Shown: positions 3,642 through 62,197 of the stretch, piece after piece
Numbering within the stretch: the first letter of the stretch is position 1
Layout of the letters: each line of letters opens with the position of its first letter
Source of the DNA: Pseudomonadota bacterium
GTDB lineage: Bacteria; Myxococcota_A; Polyangia; GCA-2747355
Direction of reading: 5' to 3'
DNA length: 64,000 bases
Assembly: GCA_016711215.1 (NCBI GenBank)
Contig: JADJTL010000001.1
Location: 1,144,067 to 1,208,066 of the forward strand
Made by a program: the position numbers and the translations under genes
The notes under the pieces: generated by a model
The model's database searches: none
Told to the model about the DNA's origin: nothing
Seen by the model: the letters and a program-made list of their open reading frames with translations, nothing else

Positions 3642-6600
3642 TCAGCCGAGCTTGGGGTTGGGGTTGCGCACGCGCGCGAGGTAGGTCGTGCGCGGCTTGA
3701 GATTCATGTCGCCCAGCACCGCGTAGTTGCGGTCGCGCTGCTTGAGCTGCGCGACGCGGCTCCGCGGGTCATTGAGATCGCCGAAGACGATCGCCTCGGT
3801 CGGGCAGACCTGCTGACAGGCCGGCACCACCGTGCCGTCGGCGATGGTATCGCTGCCCGCGGCCTTGGCCGCGAGGCGGGCGCCGTTGATGCGTTGCACG
3901 CAGTAGGTGCACTTCTCCATCACCCCGCGAAAGCGCACGGTGACGTCGGGGTTGCGCTGCATCGCCAGCAGCGCGTTCTGCCGGTCGTGCTCGGCCTGGT
4001 AGTTGAAGAAGTTGAAGCGCCGCACCTTATATGGGCAGTTGTTGGCACAGTAGCGTGTGCCGATGCAGCGGTTGTAGGCCATGTCGTTCAGCCCCTCGGG
4101 GCTATGCGCGGTGGCGCCGACCGGGCAGACGCTTTCGCAGGGCGCCGTCTCGCAATGCTGGCAGGCCATCGGCTGCGTGACGGGCAGGGCGTCGTCGCTC
4201 TCGCCGCTGAAATAGCGATCGAGGCGAATCCAATGCATCTCGCGGCCGTTGAGCACGCGCTCCTTGCCGACGACGGGGATCGTGTTCTCTGACTGGCAGG
4301 CGATCGTGCAGGCGTTGCAGCCGATGCAGCTGCTGAGGTCGATCGTCATGCCCCATTGCCGACCCGTCGTGGGGTTGGGCGGCTCCCAGAGCAGGGTCTT
4401 GACCTCGGCGTCGGGCAGGAGCTGCGCGGCGCGGGCGAAGTCAGGGTCGCGCTGGTACTGCGCCAGCGTTGCCTCCTGCACGATCGGGCGGCGCTGGCCG
4501 GTCAGGGGCTCGATCAGCGTGCCGTGGTCCTGCGTGCAGGCGAGCGCGTAGTGCCCGCGCAGGTGGCGCAGCCTGACGCCTTGGGCGAAGCGCGAGGCGT
4601 CGACGGTGCGCAGCGCGTTGGCGTTGAAGCCGCGGCCGTCGGCCACCGGGCCGCTATGCTGGCGACCATAGCCCAGCGCCAAGGCGACGCAGCTCTCTGC
4701 GACGCCCGGCGTGATCCAGACGGCGGCCTGCAGGCGGCGACCATCATGTTCGAGCTCGATCAGCTCCTCGGACTTGAGCCCGAGCCGGCGCGCCGTGGCT
4801 GCCCCGATCAACGCCGCGTTATCCCACGTCAGCTTGGTCACCGGATCGGGCAGCTCTTGCAGCCAGGCGTTGCCGGCGAAGCGGCCGTCGTAGAGCGTCG
4901 CGTCGAGCTGAAAGACCAACTCCAGGCGTTGGTCGGTGGGGGCCGGTCTATCGAGGGCGTCCTGCGGGCGCGCCGTCCGGGCGTCCCGATCGGCCGAGCC
5001 GCTCGAGCCCTCGAGCGTTGGTCGCGCTGCGGGCCTGCCGGCGAGCTGGGTCGCAAGCGCCTGCCACTCGTAGGTGGGGCTGAGCGCGGCGAGCTCAGCC
5101 GGGCGCTGCCCGTCATGGACCAGCGCGCGCCAGCGACGCTCGTGGCTGGCCTCATCGGCCCCGGCCGGCAGCAGGCCTGCATAGGCTGCGGTCGCCGGGC
5201 GGCGCAGCAGCGTGTAGCCATCGTGGAGCTTAGAGGCGATCAGGCGCGCAACGAGCTCGATCGGCGAGAGCGAGGCGAAGAGGGGCGCGATCAGCGGCTG
5301 CTGCACGCTGATCGTGCCGTCGGCGGCGCGGAGATCGCCCCAGGCCTCGAGGAAGTGGCTTTGGGGCACGACCCAGCGCGCCAGCGCCGCGGTCTCGTTG
5401 GCCGTGGGGCAGAGGTAGATCGTCGACGGGACGCGGCGCAGCAAGGTGCCGAACTCGAGATCGGCCGGCGCGTCATAGACCGGGTTTCCGCCGACGATGA
5501 CCAGCGATGAGACGGTCTCGGCCCGCAGCGCCGCGGCGAGGGCCTCGATCCCCTCGCAGTCCGCTGCCAGGTCGGGGTAGTAGCTGACCGTCTGGCCGAC
5601 GCTGCCGAGCAGCGCGTTGGTCAGCTGGCCGAGCGCATGGACCAGCGGCGGCTGCCCTTCGCCAACGATGATCAACGCCCGCCCGCGATGGGCGAGGAGG
5701 TCCTCGGCCAGCGCGCCAATCCAGCGCTGATGCGCGGCGCTCGGCGCGCGCGCCCGCAGGCGCGCCAGGAGCTGCTCGGCGCCGGCGGGCGCCGGCAGGG
5801 AAGGCGCGAGCTTGGCGACCAGGTCGGCGAGAAAGCCACCCACCTGCGAGGCCGCCAGGCGCAGGCGATTGTCGGCGTTCATCCCCGTGACGGTGAAGGC
5901 TGGCTCGACCACGTAGAGCCTGTTCATCCCGTCGCGCGGGCTGGTGAGGCGCCGTCGTTGGGCAAAGGCGCGGGCCTGGCGGACGACGTCGCCCTCGAGG
6001 CCGAGCGGATCGGCGTCGAGGGCTAGCACGACATCGGCGCGATCGAGCGCATAGCAGGGCCGAGCCCCCTTCAGCCCGACGAGTGCTGCGCCGGCCAGGC
6101 TCTGCCGTGGTTGGGCCGCGTCGTGGACGTAGAGGCGTGCGTGCGGGTAGCGAGCGCGAAGCTCGCCCAGCAGCGCGTGGAGCGTCGGCGAACGGAGGTC
6201 CTGCAGCAGCAGCGCCAGGCCGCGCCCCTGCTGCCGCTCGAGGCGCGCCGCGAGCCCGGCCAGCGCGGCATCGCGCTCGCGCGTGGAGACCGAGCGGTCG
6301 CCGAGGCGCGTGCGCCGCAGGCGCTGCGGGTCGTAGAGATCGAGCACGCTCGCCTGCAGGAAGGTGTCGGTGGCGCCGCGACTCATCGGATGGTCGGGGT
6401 GGCCCTCGATCTTGGTCGGGCGTCCGTCCTGGCTCTCGACGAGCAGGCCGACCACCCCCCCCGTGAGCTGGGCGGCGGTGGCGTAGTAGCGCGGCTGTCC
6501 AGGGACCAGATCCTCGGGCCGCTGGTTGAAGGGCAGGATCAGCTCGCGTGGCTTGCGCACGCAGCCGCTCAGCGTGGCGCCGGCGAGGGTTAGCGAGGCG

Positions 6601-7672: not shown

Positions 7673-7745
7673 GGCCAGCGGCGACGGCCAGCGGCGACGG
7701 CGGAGGTGCGGCGACGGCGGACATGCGGCGACGGCGGACGTGCGG
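7673..7745. repeat. Degenerate tandem array (ggccagcggcgac x2, then ggcggaNNtgcggcgac x2.8) in the actA/aroF divergent intergenic region
   Basis: Read directly: ggccagcggcgac ggccagcggcgac ggcggaggtgcggcgac ggcggacatgcggcgac ggcggacgtgcgg. Confidence 0.8.
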
Positions 7746-9039: not shown

Positions 9040-9047
9040 CGCCCTGC

Positions 9048-9092
9048 GCACGCCACGCACGCCACGCACGCCACGCACGCCACGCACGCCAC
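9048..9092. repeat. 9-bp perfect tandem repeat gcacgccac x5
   Basis: Read directly; intergenic, downstream of aroF. Confidence 0.9.
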
Positions 9093-9337: not shown

Positions 9338-10540
9338 ATGACGAATCAAGACGCTCGACCAGATGCTCGACCAGATGCTCGACCAGATGCTCCACGCGAC
9401 GGCCGAGGCGTTGGCGTGCAGGCGCTGAGAGCCAGGCGGTGGGTCGCAATGCTCGGCCTTTGCGCACTGCAACTTGGCTGCGCGGGCAGCGTCGACTCGG
9501 GTGCTGCGGGGGGCGATGCCCTGGGCACCGGTGGGTCGATCTACGACGTCACCAACACCGCCGGGGCCGTCGGGTCGACCGCCAGCGAGAGCGCTATTTC
9601 GAGCGGCACGAAGCTCTTCGTCATCGCCGACGGGGCACGGGTCAACGTGACGGTGGCCGGCAGCAGCACCCCGGTGATCTGGGGCAAGCTGTCGACGGGC
9701 GACGTGCTCGGCTTCGGCTATCTCGACAAGGCCTATCGCTATGAGCACGGCGGCACGGCCACGGAGCTGCTGCCCAGCGGTTCTGCGGGCGGGATGGTGA
9801 CGAGCTCGATGGTCGCGCCGGGCGCGGAGATCGGGCTGCCCAGCCTCAACCTCACGGGGACGACCCAACCCTACGTGCTGATCGTGCGGGGACCGGAGGC
9901 CAGCGGTGCCTACGGTTATATACTTTCGCCCTGCGGCGACGCTGCCTGCTCCAACGGCCCGACGGATGCCACCGTGCGGACCGCGGTGGCCAATCAACCG
10001 GTCAACGTCGGGGGTGATTACACGCTCGAGTTCCGCCCGGTCGAGCTGAACGGCGTTGCGAAGACGCTCTTCTCGCTGCGGAGGACGACGGCCGTCGCCA
10101 CCAGCGCGAGCACCAGCGCGAGCACCAGCGCGACCACCGCGGCGACCAGCAGCGTGGCCCCGGCCGCTCCCACCCCGCCACCCCCGCCGCCCACGGCCCC
10201 CACGGCCCCCACCGCGCCGGCAAAGGCCGCCGACGACGGCTGGTCGATGACCGATTGGCTGCTGCTCGGTGGCGCCGCGGTGGGCGGGTACGTCCTGTGG
10301 ATGAAGAAATGCGACTGGTTCGATATCGCCTGCAACGGCGCACAGACGAACGCTGCCGGCGGCGGTCCCAACTGGGGTGGTAATGATCCTAGCCTTCTGA
10401 ACGGGACGGTGGGAGGCAACACAGCCGCCTTTCCTTATGGCTATCAGTCCGCGACGGGAGCTGGCTGCTACGTCGATGCGAATGGACAGGTGCGGCTCAG
10501 ATCGACGCACCTTCTCGGCGACACTTGGAGCTGCTACTAG
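9338..10540 (+). CDS. Hypothetical repeat-containing envelope protein (putative lipoprotein with C-terminal TM helix and Cys-rich tail)
   Basis: AGGAGG 8 nt upstream of the ATG. N-terminus is MTNQ(DARP)3, followed by signal/lipobox MLGLCALQLGCAGS. Low-complexity TSAS and PTA repeats, Pro-rich linker, TM WLLLGGAAVGGYVLW, and a tail with 4 Cys. I recognise no family. Confidence 0.6.
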   Translation: MTNQDARPDARPDARPDAPRDGRGVGVQALRARRWVAMLGLCALQLGCAGSVDSGAAGGDALGTGGSIYDVTNTAGAVGSTASESAISSGTKLFVIADGARVNVTVAGSSTPVIWGKLSTGDVLGFGYLDKAYRYEHGGTATELLPSGSAGGMVTSSMVAPGAEIGLPSLNLTGTTQPYVLIVRGPEASGAYGYILSPCGDAACSNGPTDATVRTAVANQPVNVGGDYTLEFRPVELNGVAKTLFSLRRTTAVATSASTSASTSATTAATSSVAPAAPTPPPPPPTAPTAPTAPAKAADDGWSMTDWLLLGGAAVGGYVLWMKKCDWFDIACNGAQTNAAGGGPNWGGNDPSLLNGTVGGNTAAFPYGYQSATGAGCYVDANGQVRLRSTHLLGDTWSCY

Positions 10541-24148: not shown

Positions 24149-24185
24149 GCCCCCCGCGCGCTGGCCTCGGCGCCAGCGGCGGCGA

Positions 24186-24270
24186 GGGATGATGCGAGCG
24201 CGATGGATGCCAGCGAGCGCGATGGATGCCAGCGAGCGCGATGGATGCCAGCGAGCGCGATGGATGATGC
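24186..24270. repeat. 19-bp tandem repeat gcgatggatgccagcgagc (~4.5 copies), ending 16 nt before tRNA-Val
   Basis: Three perfect copies at 24200-24256, flanked by partial or variant copies. Confidence 0.9.
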
Positions 24271-24286
24271 GGCAGAGCAGCAGTAG

Positions 24287-29055: not shown

Positions 29056-30459
29056 TCAAGGCATCGCCACCGAGGGCCCGCAGGGTGGGCGTTGGTCCTG
29101 GCGACAGAAGGGCAGCGTGCGGCAGACCGCGCTGCTCGCCGCGGCGGCGGTGCAACGTAGCATCATGCGGCTCGCCGGGTAGTCGAGATCAGTCTCGAAA
29201 AAGGACAGCCACTCGCCGCCCAGCACGATGTCGAGATCGGGAACGCGAGGCCGCAGCTCCTGGCGCAGACCCTGGAGCAGCGGCGAGCGATCGTCGACGA
29301 TCGCGAAGGCGATCGGGGCGCCGACCCAGGCCACCGCCGCGCCTCGTTCGTCGCGATCCTGCGCCGCATCGAGCGCAAAGCGGTCGAGACGCAGCAGGCG
29401 CCAGCGCCGCGCGAGCTCGCCGCAGGGGCCAAAGTTACGCCGCGGGTCGTCGAGCGTGCGGGTCATGTCGGCCACCAGGGCGGCACGCGGAATCGACACC
29501 AGCGAGACGATCTCGCTGCCGGTTGGCAGATAGAGCGTGTGCCCGGGCGCTTCCTGCAGCTCGGGATGGCGCGCCTGGAGCTGCTCGAAGGCCGAGCGAG
29601 CGATCAGCGGAGTGCCCACCCCCGAGGCCACGATCGCCACCGCGTCGAGACCGCTGGCCGCGGTCGGTGGTGCGGCGTCACCGGTGGGATCGTAGTCGTC
29701 GGGCAGCAGGCAGAGCGGCGCGATCACGCGGCGGCCGGGGAGCACCGTGCTCTCGCCGGCGATCGAGGCGCGCCCGCCGCCGCGCAGCCCGCCGGCGAAG
29801 ACGGCCGCGCAGCGCTCACTGCGCAGGCCGTCGGCGGTGACAAGGCGCGTGACGTCGCAATCGGCTGCCAGCTGGTCGTTGCTGCCCGCCAACTCGGAGC
29901 GCAACGTCAGCGCGCGGGGCGCGGCCGTGGCGCTGCCTCCGTCTGCTACCCCCAGGTAGTTGAGCGTGACGGCGAAATGCGCGAGGACGTCGACGCCGAG
30001 CAGCAGGTCGACGGCCAGCGGCGCATCAAGACCAATCGGACCGGCGCTGGCCTCGAGCAGCTCGAGGTCGTGAAAGACGAAGCGCGTGACGGTTGGACGC
30101 AGCGCATCGAGCAGGCGCAGCGCCACGCGCCGGCGACGACTGCGGAAACCCTCGCTCTGCCTGAGTAAGGTCAGCGACGCGGCGTTGTCGACGACCGCGC
30201 GCAGCGGGGGACCGTCGTCGACGCGCACCCGCGCGACGAGCACGCCCTGTTCGAGGGTGGCCGGAATCGGCTCGCCAAGAAAGCCCTCGTAGCGCAGCTC
30301 ACCGCAGCCGCCGAGGCCCAGCGCGAGCAGCACTGCGCATGCTGCGCATGCCGCGCATGCTGCGCACGCTGCGGAGCGTCGCCCTGGTCGGCCAGCGCCT
30401 TGAGGCGCTCTAGGCCGGGTCCTTGAGCTTGCTCCGCAGCTTCTCGACGAGTGCGCCAT
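29056..30459 (-). CDS. Hypothetical lipoprotein (two internally similar halves, faintly retropepsin-like, no intact DTG/DSG)
   Basis: Signal peptide containing (CAA)4 then lipobox LGLGGCG. Both halves end in LLG.D.L..F...L.Y-type segments. First-half motif is VVDNAAS. Start uncertain (the ATG at 30459 overlaps the upstream gene by 50 nt). Confidence 0.45.
   Translation of the reverse strand: MAHSSRSCGASSRTRPRAPQGAGRPGRRSAACAACAACAACAVLLALGLGGCGELRYEGFLGEPIPATLEQGVLVARVRVDDGPPLRAVVDNAASLTLLRQSEGFRSRRRRVALRLLDALRPTVTRFVFHDLELLEASAGPIGLDAPLAVDLLLGVDVLAHFAVTLNYLGVADGGSATAAPRALTLRSELAGSNDQLAADCDVTRLVTADGLRSERCAAVFAGGLRGGGRASIAGESTVLPGRRVIAPLCLLPDDYDPTGDAAPPTAASGLDAVAIVASGVGTPLIARSAFEQLQARHPELQEAPGHTLYLPTGSEIVSLVSIPRAALVADMTRTLDDPRRNFGPCGELARRWRLLRLDRFALDAAQDRDERGAAVAWVGAPIAFAIVDDRSPLLQGLRQELRPRVPDLDIVLGGEWLSFFETDLDYPASRMMLRCTAAAASSAVCRTLPFCRQDQRPPCGPSVAMP
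30334..30369. repeat. 9-bp tandem repeat tgcgcatgc x4 (encodes Cys-Ala-Ala x4 inside a signal peptide)
   Basis: Read directly; in-frame within CDS 29056..30459. Confidence 0.85.
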
Positions 30460-44468: not shown

Positions 44469-45986
44469 GTGGCGCTCTCAGCGGCGGCGGCGGATGCGCA
44501 GCCCGTTCTGCGCCCTGGCGTTAGCGCGCAGGAGCGGCGCAGGCGAGCCTTGCGGCGCGGCGCTGCGCTGGCCGTGGCCAGCGTTGGGTTGACGGCCTGC
44601 GCCTCCTCGCGCCCCCTCTCCCCAGGCGCCCGCCCGGCGCTGTCGCCAGGGCTGTCGCCAGGCGCGTCGGCCACGAGGTCGCGCGTCTCGCTCCGACCCG
44701 GTGGCGCGCCGGCGACCCACTACGGGCTGGCGTCACCCTGGCTACCTCAGGGCGTCGCCCTTCGCCTTGCCGCCGCAGTCGGGCGCGCAGCGCGCGATGC
44801 GCAGGTGCCGTCGCCATGGCTCGACCGCGAGGCGGTTCAGGCCGCGCGCGACGTTTGCCGCGGACTGCCGCGCGCAGGCCCGCCGTCCCCCCGGCTGCTG
44901 GAGTTCGCGCTGCGGACGCGGGGATTGATCGAGCCGTTGCCCGATGTCGTGGTCGGCGACTGGCTGGCTACCGGGACTGAGCATGCCGCGGAGGCGCTGC
45001 GAGAGCGCCTTGCCGGCCTGCTGAAGCGGACGCGCTACGCCCGGGCGGGCGTCGCGGTCTGTCGATCGCTGCTTCGACCCGAACGCCGGCGCGTCGTCGC
45101 GCTGCTCTTGGAGAGCGCTGTGCGACTGGAGCCAGTGCCGCGCCAGGCGGCACTGGGGCAGCGCCTGCGCCTCCGCTTCCTGCGCCGCCAGCCCGGTCCC
45201 GCCCTCGCGTTGACCGTGACCTTTCCAGACGGGAGCGTGCGCGGCCTGCCGCTGCAGGTCCGCCAGGGCGGCTACGATGCCCTGGTCACCTGCGAAGCGC
45301 GCGGAAGGTACCGGATCGAGATCAGCGGGGAGGGCCCCTACGGCGACGAGGTGCTGGCGAACTTCCCGCTCGATTGCGCCGCCGCGCCGCCCACCACGCT
45401 CGAATTGCCGCCGAGCGCGCCGACGCTTGGGGCTGGGCCATCGACTGGGCTATCGACTGGGCCATCGACTGGGCTATCGACTGGGCCATCGACTGGGCTA
45501 TCGACTGGGCTATCGACTGGGCCCGCCGGATCGACGGCGGAGCAACTCGAGGCGGAGCTGTCGCTGCTGACGGCGACGCTACGCAGCCGATCGGGTCGGG
45601 CGGCGCTCGAGCCCGACGCGACGCTGGCCGGCGTGGCCCGCCGGCACGCGGAGGACATGCTAGCGCAGGGCTATCTCGGACATCGGGCGCCGCGCTTTGG
45701 CGGGCCGGTCGAGCGATTGCGCCGCGCTGGCCTGGCCTGTGCCGTGCTGCGCGAGAACGTCGCGCGTGGCTACGCTGTAGACGAGCTGTTGCACGCGTTG
45801 GCCGAGAGCCCTGCCCACCGCGCCAACCTGCTCGCCGAGGACGTCACGACCCTCGGCAGCGGCCTGGCCATTGACAGGGAGGCTCAGCCGCCCGTGCTCT
45901 TCGTGGCCCAGCTCTTCGCGGGGGGCCCCTGCACGCGTGTCACCCCCACGCCTGCTGCCTCCACGCCCGTCGCCCCCACGCGTTGA
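44469..45986 (+). CDS. Lipoprotein with C-terminal CAP/SCP (YkwD-like) domain and internal tetrapeptide repeat
   Basis: Lipobox VGLTAC. CAP-like region LAGVARRHAEDMLAQGYLGH...ENVARGY...ESPAHRANLL. (GLST/GPST) x7 linker. Confidence 0.65.
   Translation: MALSAAAADAQPVLRPGVSAQERRRRALRRGAALAVASVGLTACASSRPLSPGARPALSPGLSPGASATRSRVSLRPGGAPATHYGLASPWLPQGVALRLAAAVGRAARDAQVPSPWLDREAVQAARDVCRGLPRAGPPSPRLLEFALRTRGLIEPLPDVVVGDWLATGTEHAAEALRERLAGLLKRTRYARAGVAVCRSLLRPERRRVVALLLESAVRLEPVPRQAALGQRLRLRFLRRQPGPALALTVTFPDGSVRGLPLQVRQGGYDALVTCEARGRYRIEISGEGPYGDEVLANFPLDCAAAPPTTLELPPSAPTLGAGPSTGLSTGPSTGLSTGPSTGLSTGLSTGPAGSTAEQLEAELSLLTATLRSRSGRAALEPDATLAGVARRHAEDMLAQGYLGHRAPRFGGPVERLRRAGLACAVLRENVARGYAVDELLHALAESPAHRANLLAEDVTTLGSGLAIDREAQPPVLFVAQLFAGGPCTRVTPTPAASTPVAPTR
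45435..45518. repeat. 12-bp tandem repeat gggc(c/t)atcgact x7 inside the CAP-domain gene
   Basis: Read directly; in-frame, encoding alternating GPST/GLST. Confidence 0.9.
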
Positions 45987-46087
45987 CCGGCGGCGAAACC
46001 GCATGCTAGAGACCCGCGCGGCGGGTGGACGCCGTGTGCGAGGCCGCGACAGACCGCGACAGACCGCGACAGACGGGGAGTGTGCGA

Positions 46088-56020: not shown

Positions 56021-56620
56021 ATGGTCGAGGCAGCAGAGGTCCTAGCGTTTTGGTTCGGCGAGATCCGCGCGGATGGAAGCGTCGACGGCCAGCGCGCCGC
56101 GCTGTGGTGGAAGAAGGATCCCCTGACCGACGAGACCATCCGCGGGCGCTTCGAGCCGCTGGTGCGGCAGGCTGCGTCGGGAGAGCGCGACAGCTGGGCA
56201 GAGACGGCAGAGGGCCGGCTGGCGCTGATCATCTGCCTCGATCAGTTCCCCCGCAATATCTACCGCCAGGACCCACGCGCTTGGGCCTTCGACGCGATCG
56301 CCCAACGCCTCTGCCTGGAGGGCCTGGACCGCGGCCACGATCAGCGGCTACCGGTGATCCAGCGCGTCTTCCATTACATGCCGCTGGAGCACGCCGAGGA
56401 TCGCGACTTGCAGCAGCGCTGCCTCGAGCGCTTCGAGCAGCTACAGGTCGACGCGCCGCCGGCGCTGCAGGAGGCCTGCGCCGCTTACCTGAGCTACGCC
56501 GAGCAGCATCACGCGATTATCCAGCGCTTTGGCCGCTTTCCGCACCGCAACCAGGTTTTGGGCCGGAAGTCGACCGAGGAGGAGACGGCGTTTCTCAAGC
56601 AACCCGGGTCGTCATTCTGA
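56021..56620 (+). CDS. DUF924 family protein
   Basis: VLAFWFG, LALIICLDQFPRNIYR, HYMPLEH, IIQRFGRFPHRNQVLGR are family hallmarks as I recall them. GGAGG upstream. Confidence 0.8.
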   Translation: MVEAAEVLAFWFGEIRADGSVDGQRAALWWKKDPLTDETIRGRFEPLVRQAASGERDSWAETAEGRLALIICLDQFPRNIYRQDPRAWAFDAIAQRLCLEGLDRGHDQRLPVIQRVFHYMPLEHAEDRDLQQRCLERFEQLQVDAPPALQEACAAYLSYAEQHHAIIQRFGRFPHRNQVLGRKSTEEETAFLKQPGSSF

Positions 56621-56642
56621 CCTCGGGTCGTCGTTCTGACCT
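56605..56642. repeat. 19-bp direct duplication of the DUF924 gene 3' end including its stop codon
   Basis: cgggtcgtcattctgacct followed by cgggtcgtcgttctgacct (1 mismatch). Confidence 0.85.
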
Positions 56643-56754: not shown

Positions 56755-57318
56755 ATGTACGATACCTCCGACTTCCGCAAGGGACTGAAGGTCCTGATCG
56801 ACGGCCAGCCGTATATCGTCGTCGATTTTCAGTTCGTCAAGCCGGGCAAGGGCGTGGCCTTCACGCGCGCGCGCGTCAAGAACATGCTGACCGGCTCGGT
56901 GCTCGACAAGACCTACCGCTCCGGCGAAAAGCTCGAGCCCGCCAACATCGACGAGCGCCAGATGCAGTACCTCTACCAAGAGGGAGAGAACTACTGCTTC
57001 ATGGACCAACAGAGCTTCGATCAGGTCTTCGTGCCGGGGGAGATCCTCGGCGACAGTGCCAAGTACCTCTCGGATAACCTAGAGGTCTCGGTCGTCTTTT
57101 TTGCAGAGCGCCCCGTCGACGTGACCTTGCCGAACTTTGTCACACTCGAGGTGGTCGAGACCGACCCCGGTTTCCGCGGCGACACGGCGACCGGCGCCAC
57201 CAAACCCGCGCGGCTCTCGGCGGGCGCGGTGATCAACGTGCCGCTCTTCGTCGAGCAGGGCGAGTGGCTCAAGGTCGATACCCGCACGGGCAGCTACGTC
57301 GAGCGCGTGAAGCGCTGA
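56755..57318 (+). CDS. efp: Elongation factor P (Lys-type loop PGKG)
   Basis: MYDTSDFRKGLKVLIDGQPYIVVDFQFVKPGKGVAFTRARVKN... aligns with E. coli EF-P over its full length and ends GSYVERVKR. Confidence 0.95.
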   Translation: MYDTSDFRKGLKVLIDGQPYIVVDFQFVKPGKGVAFTRARVKNMLTGSVLDKTYRSGEKLEPANIDERQMQYLYQEGENYCFMDQQSFDQVFVPGEILGDSAKYLSDNLEVSVVFFAERPVDVTLPNFVTLEVVETDPGFRGDTATGATKPARLSAGAVINVPLFVEQGEWLKVDTRTGSYVERVKR

Positions 57319-57422
57319 CGCAATTACGTCGAGCGCGTGAAGCGCTGACGCAATTACGTCGAGCGCGTTACGTCGAGCGCGTGAAGCGCTGACGCAATTA
57401 CGTCGAGCGCGTGAAGCGCTGA
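57295..57422. repeat. 30-bp tandem repeat (tacgtcgagcgcgtgaagcgctgacgcaat), 4 full or near-full copies plus one 14-nt partial; the first copy is the efp 3' end and stop
   Basis: Copies at 57295, 57325, 57355 (14 nt), 57369 and 57399. They fill nearly the whole efp-epmA spacer. Confidence 0.95.
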
Positions 57423-57432
57423 TCCCCTGACG

Positions 57433-58719
57433 ATGGCCACGGCACGCTGCCTCTGCGCCGAGCTCGGTCCCGAGCGCCTGGCCCAGGGGGAGGCCTTCGT
57501 CTGTGGGCGCGTGTTGGGCGTCGATCCTGCGCGGCGTGAGCTGATCGTCGTCGACCGCTCAGGTCGGGCCTGCGTCGCCTTACCGGAGCCCTTGCCGCTG
57601 CCGAGCCCGGGGGACATCGCGCGCCTCGAGCTGGGCCCCGCGTGGCCGGCCTGCGCCGCCGCTCTTCAGGTGCTGACGCCCTATCGTCGCGCCGAGCCCT
57701 TTCCCTCGCCCGGCGCGGATTACTATCGGCTGAACGCGGGCACCAGCAGCCGCGCGGAGCGGCTTCGCTTGCGCGCGCGTTTGTTGGCCGCCGTGCGCGG
57801 GTTCTTCGACGCAAGGGGCTTCGTCGAGATTCAGAGCCCGCAGCGCGTCGCCTGTCCGGGGCTAGAGCCGCAGCTCCTGGCCGAGCCGGCGGGGGAGGGG
57901 TTCTTGATCACCTCCCCCGAGTATCAGCTCAAGCGCCTGTTGGTCGCCGGTTTCGAGCAAATCTACTTTCTCGGCGGCTGCTGGCGCGCCGACGAACGCG
58001 GACCGCTGCACCTCAATGAGCTCTGCATGCTCGAGTGGTACCAGGCCTACGATGAGCTCGAGGCGCTGCTGCTGCTGACCGAGGCGCTGCTGCGCGCGGT
58101 GGCGCAGCAGGTCCTCGGCACGCTGCGACTGCGCTGGGGCGGTATGGAGGTCGATCTCGGACAGCCCTTCCGCCGCCTGAGCGTCACGCAGGCGCTGCGC
58201 GAGCTCGCCGGGCTGCAGCTCCGCGGGCCGCTCGACGATCCGCGGATGCTGCGTGAGGCCGCGCTGGCGGCGGGTATCGGCCCCTTCGCTGCCGACGCCG
58301 ACTACGACGAGGTCTTCTCGCGCATCGTCCTCGAGCGCATCGAGCCAGCCCTGGCGACGATGGGCGCCGTCTTCTTCACCGACTTCCCGGCCCCGCTCGC
58401 CGCGCTGGCCCGCCGCCACCCGCGCGATGCAGCGCTGGCGCGACGCTCTGAGCTCTATGTGGCGGGCGTCGAGCTGGCCAACGCCTTCGAGGAGCTCACC
58501 GATCCAGACGAGCAGCTCGCCCGACTCCGTGCTGATCAGGCGCTGCGCGCGCGCCGTGGGCTGCCCATCTACCCGATCGATCAACGCTTCATCGAGGCGC
58601 TGCGCGAAGGCATGCCACCGAGCAGCGGTATCGCCCTCGGCGTCGACCGCCTACTGCTGCTGCTGAGCGGCGCGAGCCACATCGACGAGACGGTGGCCTT
58701 CGCCACCCCTGAGCTTTGA
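57433..58719 (+). CDS. epmA: EF-P lysine aminoacylase EpmA (PoxA/GenX, class II LysRS paralogue) with ~95-aa N-terminal extension
   Basis: From residue ~105: RARLLAAVRGFFDARGFVEIQSP...LITSPEYQLKRLLVAG...NELCMLEWY...ELANAFEEL...GIALGVDRLL matches the E. coli EpmA order. Adjacent to efp. Confidence 0.85.
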   Translation: MATARCLCAELGPERLAQGEAFVCGRVLGVDPARRELIVVDRSGRACVALPEPLPLPSPGDIARLELGPAWPACAAALQVLTPYRRAEPFPSPGADYYRLNAGTSSRAERLRLRARLLAAVRGFFDARGFVEIQSPQRVACPGLEPQLLAEPAGEGFLITSPEYQLKRLLVAGFEQIYFLGGCWRADERGPLHLNELCMLEWYQAYDELEALLLLTEALLRAVAQQVLGTLRLRWGGMEVDLGQPFRRLSVTQALRELAGLQLRGPLDDPRMLREAALAAGIGPFAADADYDEVFSRIVLERIEPALATMGAVFFTDFPAPLAALARRHPRDAALARRSELYVAGVELANAFEELTDPDEQLARLRADQALRARRGLPIYPIDQRFIEALREGMPPSSGIALGVDRLLLLLSGASHIDETVAFATPEL

Positions 58720-60304: not shown

Positions 60305-60356
60305 GCGGCCCGCGTTAGCCGCAGTCGGCGCGGGGCGCCCGCCCCCGACGGGGTCG

Positions 60357-60383
60357 ACCAGATCAGTCGCGGGTGCGACCGGA

Positions 60384-60396
<13 letters not shown>
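60357..60396. repeat. ~20-bp imperfect direct duplication of the fumarase gene 3' end including its stop
   Basis: accagatcagtcgcgggtgcg followed by accggatcagtcgtgggcg. On the minus strand this places two TGA codons 21 nt apart, in frame. Confidence 0.7.
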
Positions 60397-62012
<1,616 letters not shown>

Positions 62013-62197
62013 GTGAGGATCCCCCGCCGGCCTTTTTAGCGCGAGGGAGGGTTTGACTCCAGTGGCACGGTGGCCTCCTCAGCGTCCCCTAATCAGCGCG
62101 AGACGGGTCAGCTCAGCGCGAGACTGATCAGCGCGAGGCGGCTGCTGTGCCCCAGGGCAAACTCGAAAATGAAGGGGCCTCGGCCGGCATCCTTCGC

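Follow-up and report, generated by a model that had tools for sequence, protein, structure and literature searches.

A tandem array copied from the 3' end of efp separates efp from epmA and is probably a coding-anchored minisatellite

Several kinds of tandem or intercistronic repeats have been described, and the array between efp and epmA is similar to each of them in part. MIRUs are tandem units of tens of nucleotides which lie between co-oriented genes of an operon, vary in number and interplay with the flanking stop and start codons (PMC12548453). The efp array is likewise intercistronic in an operon, tandem and variable. In contrast, MIRUs form a dispersed and apparently mobile family whose ORF is coupled to the start codon downstream, whereas the efp unit is local within the window (the whole stretch of DNA analysed here, 64 kb) and no ORF joins efp to epmA. 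Borg elements contain dense, perfect and fast-evolving tandem repeats with locus-specific units, and their periods are divisible by three inside genes but not between genes (PMC9879509). On the basis of 64 kb, the window shows the same excess of repeats, the same period rule inside ORFs and units reaching gene ends. Unlike the archaeal, extrachromosomal Borgs, it belongs to a GC-rich bacterial chromosome (70% GC, 1.33-Mb contig), and the A-bias of Borg repeats is not present in it. REP/BIME elements place stable hairpins between unequally expressed cistrons, and one efp unit is also predicted to fold at –14.3 kcal/mol. However, REP/BIME elements are dispersed imperfect palindromes, whereas the palindrome of the efp unit, AGCGC-N5-GCGCT, had only 3 further occurrences in the window beyond the array, against 1.3 expected. 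The efp unit has no dispersed family, its structure is not conserved over the arrays of relatives, and its hairpin is largely due to coding sequence. Bacterial VNTRs or minisatellites are similar to the efp array in their head-to-tail units (here of 9–32 nt), near-perfect young copies, non-coding site, and loss and re-expansion. The unit size falls within the range of about 10–100 nt of a head-to-tail VNTR, and copy-number variation at the strain level was found in the homologous locus of two related species. The efp array differs from the usual VNTR in that its unit comes from the upstream gene's 3' end, stop codon included, and not from anonymous intergenic DNA. One copy is thus permanently guarded by coding constraint and able to reseed the others. 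This coding anchoring is a special case within the known VNTR kind and not a new kind.

The two genes flanking the array were well assigned. The efp gene (elongation factor P) is located at 56755–57318 on the plus strand and encodes 187 residues with a lysine in the PGKG loop. Its product matched Pfam EFP_N, EFP and Elong-fact-P_C, the last over positions 1–56 of 56, and is identical to the protein MBK8480458.1. The epmA gene (genX/poxA), encoding the EF-P lysine aminoacylase of 428 residues, is located at 57433–58719 on the plus strand. Residues 104–424 of EpmA matched Pfam tRNA-synt_2 (class II tRNA-synthetase-like), and the protein is identical to MBK8480459.1, named 'EF-P lysine aminoacylase GenX' by NCBI. 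The first-pass annotation had placed the array between EF-P and the enzyme which modifies it, and both gene identities are upheld by the Pfam and NCBI protein matches. Residues 1–103 of EpmA (57433–57740) form an N-terminal extension of about 100 residues ahead of the tRNA-synt_2 core. The extension also occurs in homologues of about 400–460 residues and is conserved against the EpmA of the relative L001 from R5 onward, and a Pfam search with it gave no credible match. EpmA of E. coli has about 325 residues and is not known to carry an N-terminal domain.

In the window, 114 nt separate the efp stop from the epmA start. The 3' end of efp reads TAC GTC GAG CGC GTG AAG CGC TGA, and the 30-nt sequence TACGTCGAGCGCGTGAAGCGCTGACGCAAT is present at 57295–57324, 57325–57354 and 57369–57398 with 0 mismatches, all on the plus strand. 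Unit 1 (57295–57324) is the native efp 3' end, 24 nt including the TGA, followed by the linker CGCAAT. It is the anchor of the array, with coding constraint on its first 24 nt. Unit 2 (57325–57354) is a perfect 30-nt copy. It is followed by a 14-nt partial copy, TACGTCGAGCGCGT (57355–57368, plus strand), matching unit positions 1–14, as had been reported from the first reading. Alternatively, this partial copy marks where the two halves of a secondary 44-nt duplication (57325–57412) meet. Unit 3 (57369–57398) is again a perfect 30-nt copy, in which the efp frame is not kept. Unit 4 (57399–57422, plus strand) is a distal 24-nt copy which ends with TGA. Four sites of the 24 nt plus CGCAAT had been proposed; those at 57295, 57325 and 57369 are perfect, and the copy at 57399 consists of the 24 nt without the linker. 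The 10-mer TCCCCTGACG (57423–57432, plus strand) fills the space from the last TGA to the ATG of epmA. In shorthand the array reads AB AB A AB AB', with a length of 14 nt for A and 16 nt for B. It was described by TRF with a period of 30 and 2.5 copies at 100% matching, and rows with periods of 44 (57324–57412) and 14 were also 100% matching; the scores of 148 and 178 are the maximum of the window. The perfect 44-nt and 14-nt duplications indicate at least two kinds of slippage event on top of the 30-nt period. None of the dinucleotide shuffles contained a match to the unit or to the partial copy.

The copies derive from efp and not the reverse, because the 24 nt encode the canonical C-terminus of EF-P (...YVERVKR) in relatives with and without the array. 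The longer C-terminal sequence ...TGSYVERVKR is common to all relatives compared. Outside the array, no enrichment of the unit, of its palindrome or of its cores of 14 and 11 nt was seen within the 64-kb window. On this scale the array is therefore no member of a dispersed family of the REP or MIRU type. Scattered identical arrays were looked for in the 64-kb window and none was found, which agrees with the earlier proposal of a local, efp-specific array. A dispersed motif or operator family was also considered and rejected, as there was no excess beyond the array in 64 kb. As a possible source of the linker, the 8 nt that precede the unit within efp were considered. The comparison of CGGGGAGC gave 6 of 8 matches with CGCGGCGC and 3 of 8 with CGCAATGT, which is suggestive of a linker taken from these 8 nt. 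The origin of the 6–8-nt linker is unproven, and thus the first event is not demonstrably a simple duplication.

The homologous junction was compared in 19 contigs of the clade, with EpmA identity of about 78–82% and efp nucleotide identity of 89–93% to the window, and in several outgroups with EpmA identity of 52–59%. A homologue search and the members of the EF-P 90% cluster supplied most of these loci, and EpmA scans of genome contigs and metagenome contigs gave one and two loci, respectively. The nearest named homologues are from Kofleriaceae and Deltaproteobacteria MAGs, and activated sludge is recorded for a sample of one relative. Arrays derived from the efp 3' end were found in 18 contigs from relatives in differing forms, with one, two or three extra copies at a period of 31–32 nt or with arrays of a 9-nt sub-unit. 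The simplest array, in L019, consists of TGA, CGCAATGT, one 24-mer ending with TGG, ATCCCCTGATC and the ATG (spacer 43 nt). Two extra copies with the linkers CGCAATCT and CGCGGCG are present in L011 and L015 (spacer 74 nt). Three extra copies with the additional linker CGCAGTGT are present in L009, L010, L012, L013 and L016 (spacer 106 nt), and L005, L014, L017 and L018 are of the L009 type but truncated by the contig end. In these L005/L009-type arrays the distal copy has 5 mismatches in 24 nt and its TGA is changed to TGG. From the comparison with L005, L009 and L019, unit 4 of the window is homologous to this decayed distal copy. L001 and L004 share the order TGA, GGCGGCGC, ACG, (TCGAGCGCG)n, TCGAGCGCTGA, with n = 3 for L001 and n = 2 for L004; counted as TCGAGCGC, the repeats are four and three, respectively. 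The spacer of L001 is 68 nt when counted to the GTG start. In L002, L021 and L022 the 9-nt arrays are degenerate, the terminal TGA is changed to CGA and the spacer is 59 nt.

One clade member, L023, has no array. Its junction reads ...AAGCGCTGA TCCCCTGACG ATGGCC..., with a spacer of 10 nt. This 10-mer is identical to the 10 nt behind the last copy of the window, and variants of it precede epmA in every relative. The outgroups L003, L006 and L007/L008 are repeat-free, and their epmA start overlaps the efp stop, lies 24 nt away from it or stands behind an unrelated stretch. The P0007 contig, for which gene calls only were used, has an efp–epmA gap of 8 nt. EpmA identity to the window is 52–57% for the outgroups with these junctions. 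Two further features of L001 and L004 were observed. At the codon homologous to the epmA ATG this species has CTG, and a GTG three codons further on (4001–4012 in L001) is the following candidate start. In the other direction the epmA frame contains no stop across the 9-nt array as far as an ATG within efp, from which gene callers annotated a product of 463 residues. Just past the epmA stop of L001, which is a long-read MAG, there is a 91-nt CT-rich low-complexity stretch (TTTTTTTTTCCCCCTCTTTCTTTTC..., about 5307–5397). The stretch is absent in the 99%-identical short-read contig L004 and may be an assembly artefact or a true indel.

In a neighbour-joining tree of efp, the window and the array-free L023 were paired, with 92.7% nucleotide identity as nearest relatives, and the remaining array-bearing loci formed their sister group. 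The linker CGCAAT is common to the window, L019 and the L009-type arrays, across this split. The shared linker therefore indicates an array in the common ancestor which collapsed in L023. The junction sequences thus argue for a single ancestral origin with a loss in L023, and an independent origin is less favoured. Five of the six sampled clade lineages still have the array or a derived form. The efp genes of L009 and L015 are 100% identical over 564 nt and their arrays differ by one 32-nt unit. More widely, the L009-type and L011/L015 alleles are one 32-nt unit apart at 99.8–100% efp identity. L001 and L004 are 98.5–99.3% identical over 3.8 kb and one 9-nt unit apart. The turnover of copy number outpaces point substitution. 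The first-pass annotation had listed a slippage-prone VNTR as the plainest of its possibilities, and this one is strengthened by a copy number and unit length that vary among close relatives and, in two cases, from one near-identical strain to another, by the array-free state of the close relative L023, by the decay of distal copies and by the richness of the window in other tandem repeats. The proximal copies are perfect and the distal ones decayed, and old diverged linkers stand beside pristine 24-mers. The copies themselves seem to be free of sequence constraint, and the array appears dispensable, L023 being without it.

The efp array is not an isolated repeat. In the window, 21 TRF loci with a score of at least 50 were found against a mean of 1.3 (range 0–3) in 20 dinucleotide shuffles, which is an excess of about 16-fold. 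According to a GC3-based gene map, 8 loci are inside coding-like ORFs, 10 are non-coding and 3 lie across a stop codon. The periods inside ORFs are 9, 12, 12, 15, 17, 18, 21 and 24, divisible by three in seven of eight with 17 as the exception, and the periods of the non-coding loci are not bound to multiples of three. Many repeats of the window are perfect and intergenic with periods of 9–24 nt; examples of repeat loci are 45433–45523, 24172–24271, 9047–9092, 7673–7745, 46044–46074, 30333–30373 and 62093–62132. A 12-nt repeat with 3.7 copies (AGATGCTCGACC) is also located at 9339–9392, a few codons past an ATG with GGAGG ahead, and it would encode (DARP)n at the extreme N-terminus if the ORF is real. 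The other two stop-spanning repeats are behind a DUF924 gene and behind the gene of class I fumarate hydratase. The DUF924 gene lies directly upstream of efp and its stop is at 56618–56620; its 3' end is covered by a 19-nt × 2 repeat across the TGA (56605–56642, CGGGTCGTCATTCTGACCT / CGGGTCGTCGTTCTGACCT, one mismatch), a duplication built like the efp array. The stop of the fumarate hydratase gene (60384–62078, minus strand; Pfam Fumerase and Fumerase_C) is spanned by a 21-nt × 2.2 repeat on the minus strand (60351–60394, CACGACTGATCCGGTCGCACC / CGCGACTGATCTGGTCGACCC). A rough binomial estimate for three stop-spanning loci among the 13 non-coding ones gave P of about 0.05–0.16 depending on the assumed amount of non-coding DNA, which is not significant in this small sample. 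A stop-spanning duplication is among the few placements near a gene which spare the protein. Therefore, such arrays are expected in a slippage-prone, gene-dense genome. The clade loci carry further tandem repeats, and the outgroup loci (1.7–4.8 kb) have none at a score of at least 40. The 64 kb and the few kb of relatives together suggest Borg-like generation of repeats across the whole lineage, here on a bacterial chromosome.

Taking these results together, we consider with a probability of roughly 70% that the array is a coding-anchored VNTR or minisatellite, a tolerated by-product of slippage and not a dedicated regulatory device. Two of the alternatives concern the RNA and the translation of the spacer. 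The array could act as an RNA element, in which a series of GC-rich hairpins serves as a REP/BIME-type stabiliser or a terminator without a U-tract, shielding the efp segment against 3' exonucleases or partly ending or processing the transcript before epmA. REP stabilisers, as in malE-malF, act where a strongly expressed cistron is followed by a weakly expressed one, and the array lies at such a place. The best fold of a single unit is one bulged 9-bp hairpin, CGUCgAGCGC-GUGAA-GCGCUGACG, with the stop codon in its 3' arm, and pairing of GACG with CGUC between units is an alternative fold. The unit hairpin has z = –2.5, with 2 of 200 shuffles equally good, and this observation speaks against a purely passive array. 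Serial small hairpins had been proposed from the AGCGC/GCGCT and GACG/CGUC inverted repeats. As a whole, the array shows no excess of stability over shuffled sequence: the z values are –0.9 in the window, +0.1 in L001, –1.5 in L009 and –1.6 in L002, so that none of the four lineages stands out. The hairpin largely comes from coding sequence (two xAG-CGC codon pairs), and hence selection for it is not required; moreover, the hairpin unit is not preserved in the 9-nt arrays of L001 and L004. A scan of 57250–57450 for promoter-like or terminator-like consensus sequences found none. The units are followed by CGCAAT and not by the T-run which an intrinsic terminator has behind its GC-rich stem-loop, kinds without a U-tract lying outside these scans. 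No Rfam family reached its threshold in the array. The only match, COG3610-DE (RF03066), was rejected, as it reached 25 bits where the gathering threshold is 73.5 (E = 0.013–0.044); it stems from the repeated GCGC-GUGAA-GCGC hairpins. The role in attenuation or termination suggested earlier is therefore disfavoured by the missing terminator consensus, the Rfam scan and the shuffle-like folding, and mRNA stabilisation or a protein-binding array received little or no support from folding, Rfam or motif excess. We regard an RNA element as improbable. A selected, tunable spacer is unlikely too, though it is the alternative that we would place first. Here the distance from the efp stop to epmA, raised from about 10 to 43–114 nt, would break or grade the coupling of the two genes in the manner of a contingency locus, keeping EpmA far below the abundant EF-P. 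The efp stop and epmA start of L023 and the outgroups, 8–24 nt apart or overlapping, are near enough for termination-reinitiation and typical of coupled pairs. An added distance of less than 20 nt can substantially cut the efficiency of translational coupling (review, PMC12548453). Growth of the spacer from 10 to 114 nt, with about four stable hairpins in the intercistronic RNA, would weaken termination-reinitiation coupling, and with such a distance and such hairpins epmA probably leans more on independent initiation. By eye, no obvious Shine-Dalgarno motif was seen ahead of the epmA ATG. On the other hand, L023 manages without the array, the lengths of spacers with an array are scattered (43, 59, 68, 74, 106 and 114 nt) with none preferred, similar stop-spanning duplications lie behind unrelated genes without a downstream coupling partner, and the genome region is repeat-rich throughout. 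Both the tunable spacer and the RNA hairpins are retained as alternatives because a lower EpmA:EF-P ratio is biologically sensible and because the array is present in most lineages of the clade. The array has been retained although it turns over rapidly and a single-copy state may be absorbing, which might point to selection on the length or structure of the spacer. A combined form, in which a Borg-comparable duplication regime of the clade supplies an array that is then selected as a spacer or hairpin dial, uncoupling epmA and tuning the EF-P:EpmA ratio by slippage, is slightly less likely than the spacer alone and slightly ahead of the RNA element.

The remaining alternatives concern the stop codons and the assembly. 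Serial in-frame UGAs might be a fail-safe behind a leaky UGA-C stop of the highly expressed efp, so that read-through would add only a short tail (+RNYVERVKR). The TGA of efp is indeed followed by C, and a second homologous in-frame TGA is found 30 nt downstream, at 57346 in unit 2. The translation in the efp frame is ...YVERVKR*RNYVERVKR*RNYVERVTSSA*, with stops at 57316, 57346 and 57382. However, the TGA at 57382 is non-homologous and arises from GCG-TGA-AG, and the homologous TGA at 57390 is out of frame. Only two homologous TGAs are in the efp frame because the 14-nt partial copy shifts the register, moving later copies by 2 nt; of the three in-frame TGAs claimed by the first-pass annotation, the third is thus lost. 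In the translated window no ORF bridges the efp stop and the epmA ATG. The distal TGA is also lost in relatives (TGG in L005, the L009-type arrays and L019; CGA in L002, L021 and L022), the 9-nt arrays are without an in-frame stop copy until their end, L023 has no back-up copy, and a GC-rich 3' flank of any kind gives a stop soon enough. A fail-safe function is hardly credible on these grounds. Mis-assembly of the MAG, as an explanation of the array or of its copy number, is very improbable, if a little less so. The source MAG comes from a single assembly, exact-protein look-ups of EF-P and EpmA found no second one for this strain, the size of tandem arrays is often wrong in assemblies, and the CT-rich insertion of L001 is suspicious when compared with the near-identical L004. 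Nevertheless, homologous arrays were found in 18 independent contigs from varied projects and assemblers (NCBI MAG, JGI, ENA MEGAHIT, Logan). Therefore, the phenomenon is real, whatever the exact number of units in the window.

For the coding-anchored minisatellite, the following course is proposed. In the ancestor of this small clade, efp and epmA would have been separated by about 10 nt, the arrangement that L023 still has. A tandem duplication would then have occurred across the efp stop codon. The first copy keeps the full C-terminus and the stop, so EF-P was unchanged and the duplication could be tolerated. Later changes would be made by slipped-strand mispairing or unequal recombination. 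In this process the proximal unit, whose 24 nt are fixed by coding constraint, would be duplicated repeatedly together with its linker and reseed the array, while downstream copies drift or vanish. Reseeding from a constrained first unit explains the pattern without selection on the copies. The GC-rich hairpin of the unit and its internal 9-nt quasi-repeat (TCGAGCGCG / TGAAGCGCT) probably promote slippage, and the 9-nt arrays would be products of the same quasi-repeat. The array of the window may reflect a recent homogenisation which left a little over three 30-nt copies, with a secondary duplication of 14 or 44 nt.

As a lone locus, the efp array would be of minor importance, since it is read here as a tolerated product of slippage. 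Its interest lies first in the manner of its renewal. With a stop-spanning duplication, a repeat is continually reseeded from coding-constrained sequence, and this accounts for perfect copies beside diverged linkers; selection on the copies is not invoked. Besides, the alleles with 0, 1, 2, 3 and 3.5 extra units and the 9-nt variants form a natural series of stop-to-start distances from 10 to 114 nt. Within an otherwise conserved efp–epmA operon, this series is material on how translational coupling depends on distance. More broadly, the excess of about 16-fold in tandem repeats hints at an unusual repeat-generating regime in an uncultured lineage.
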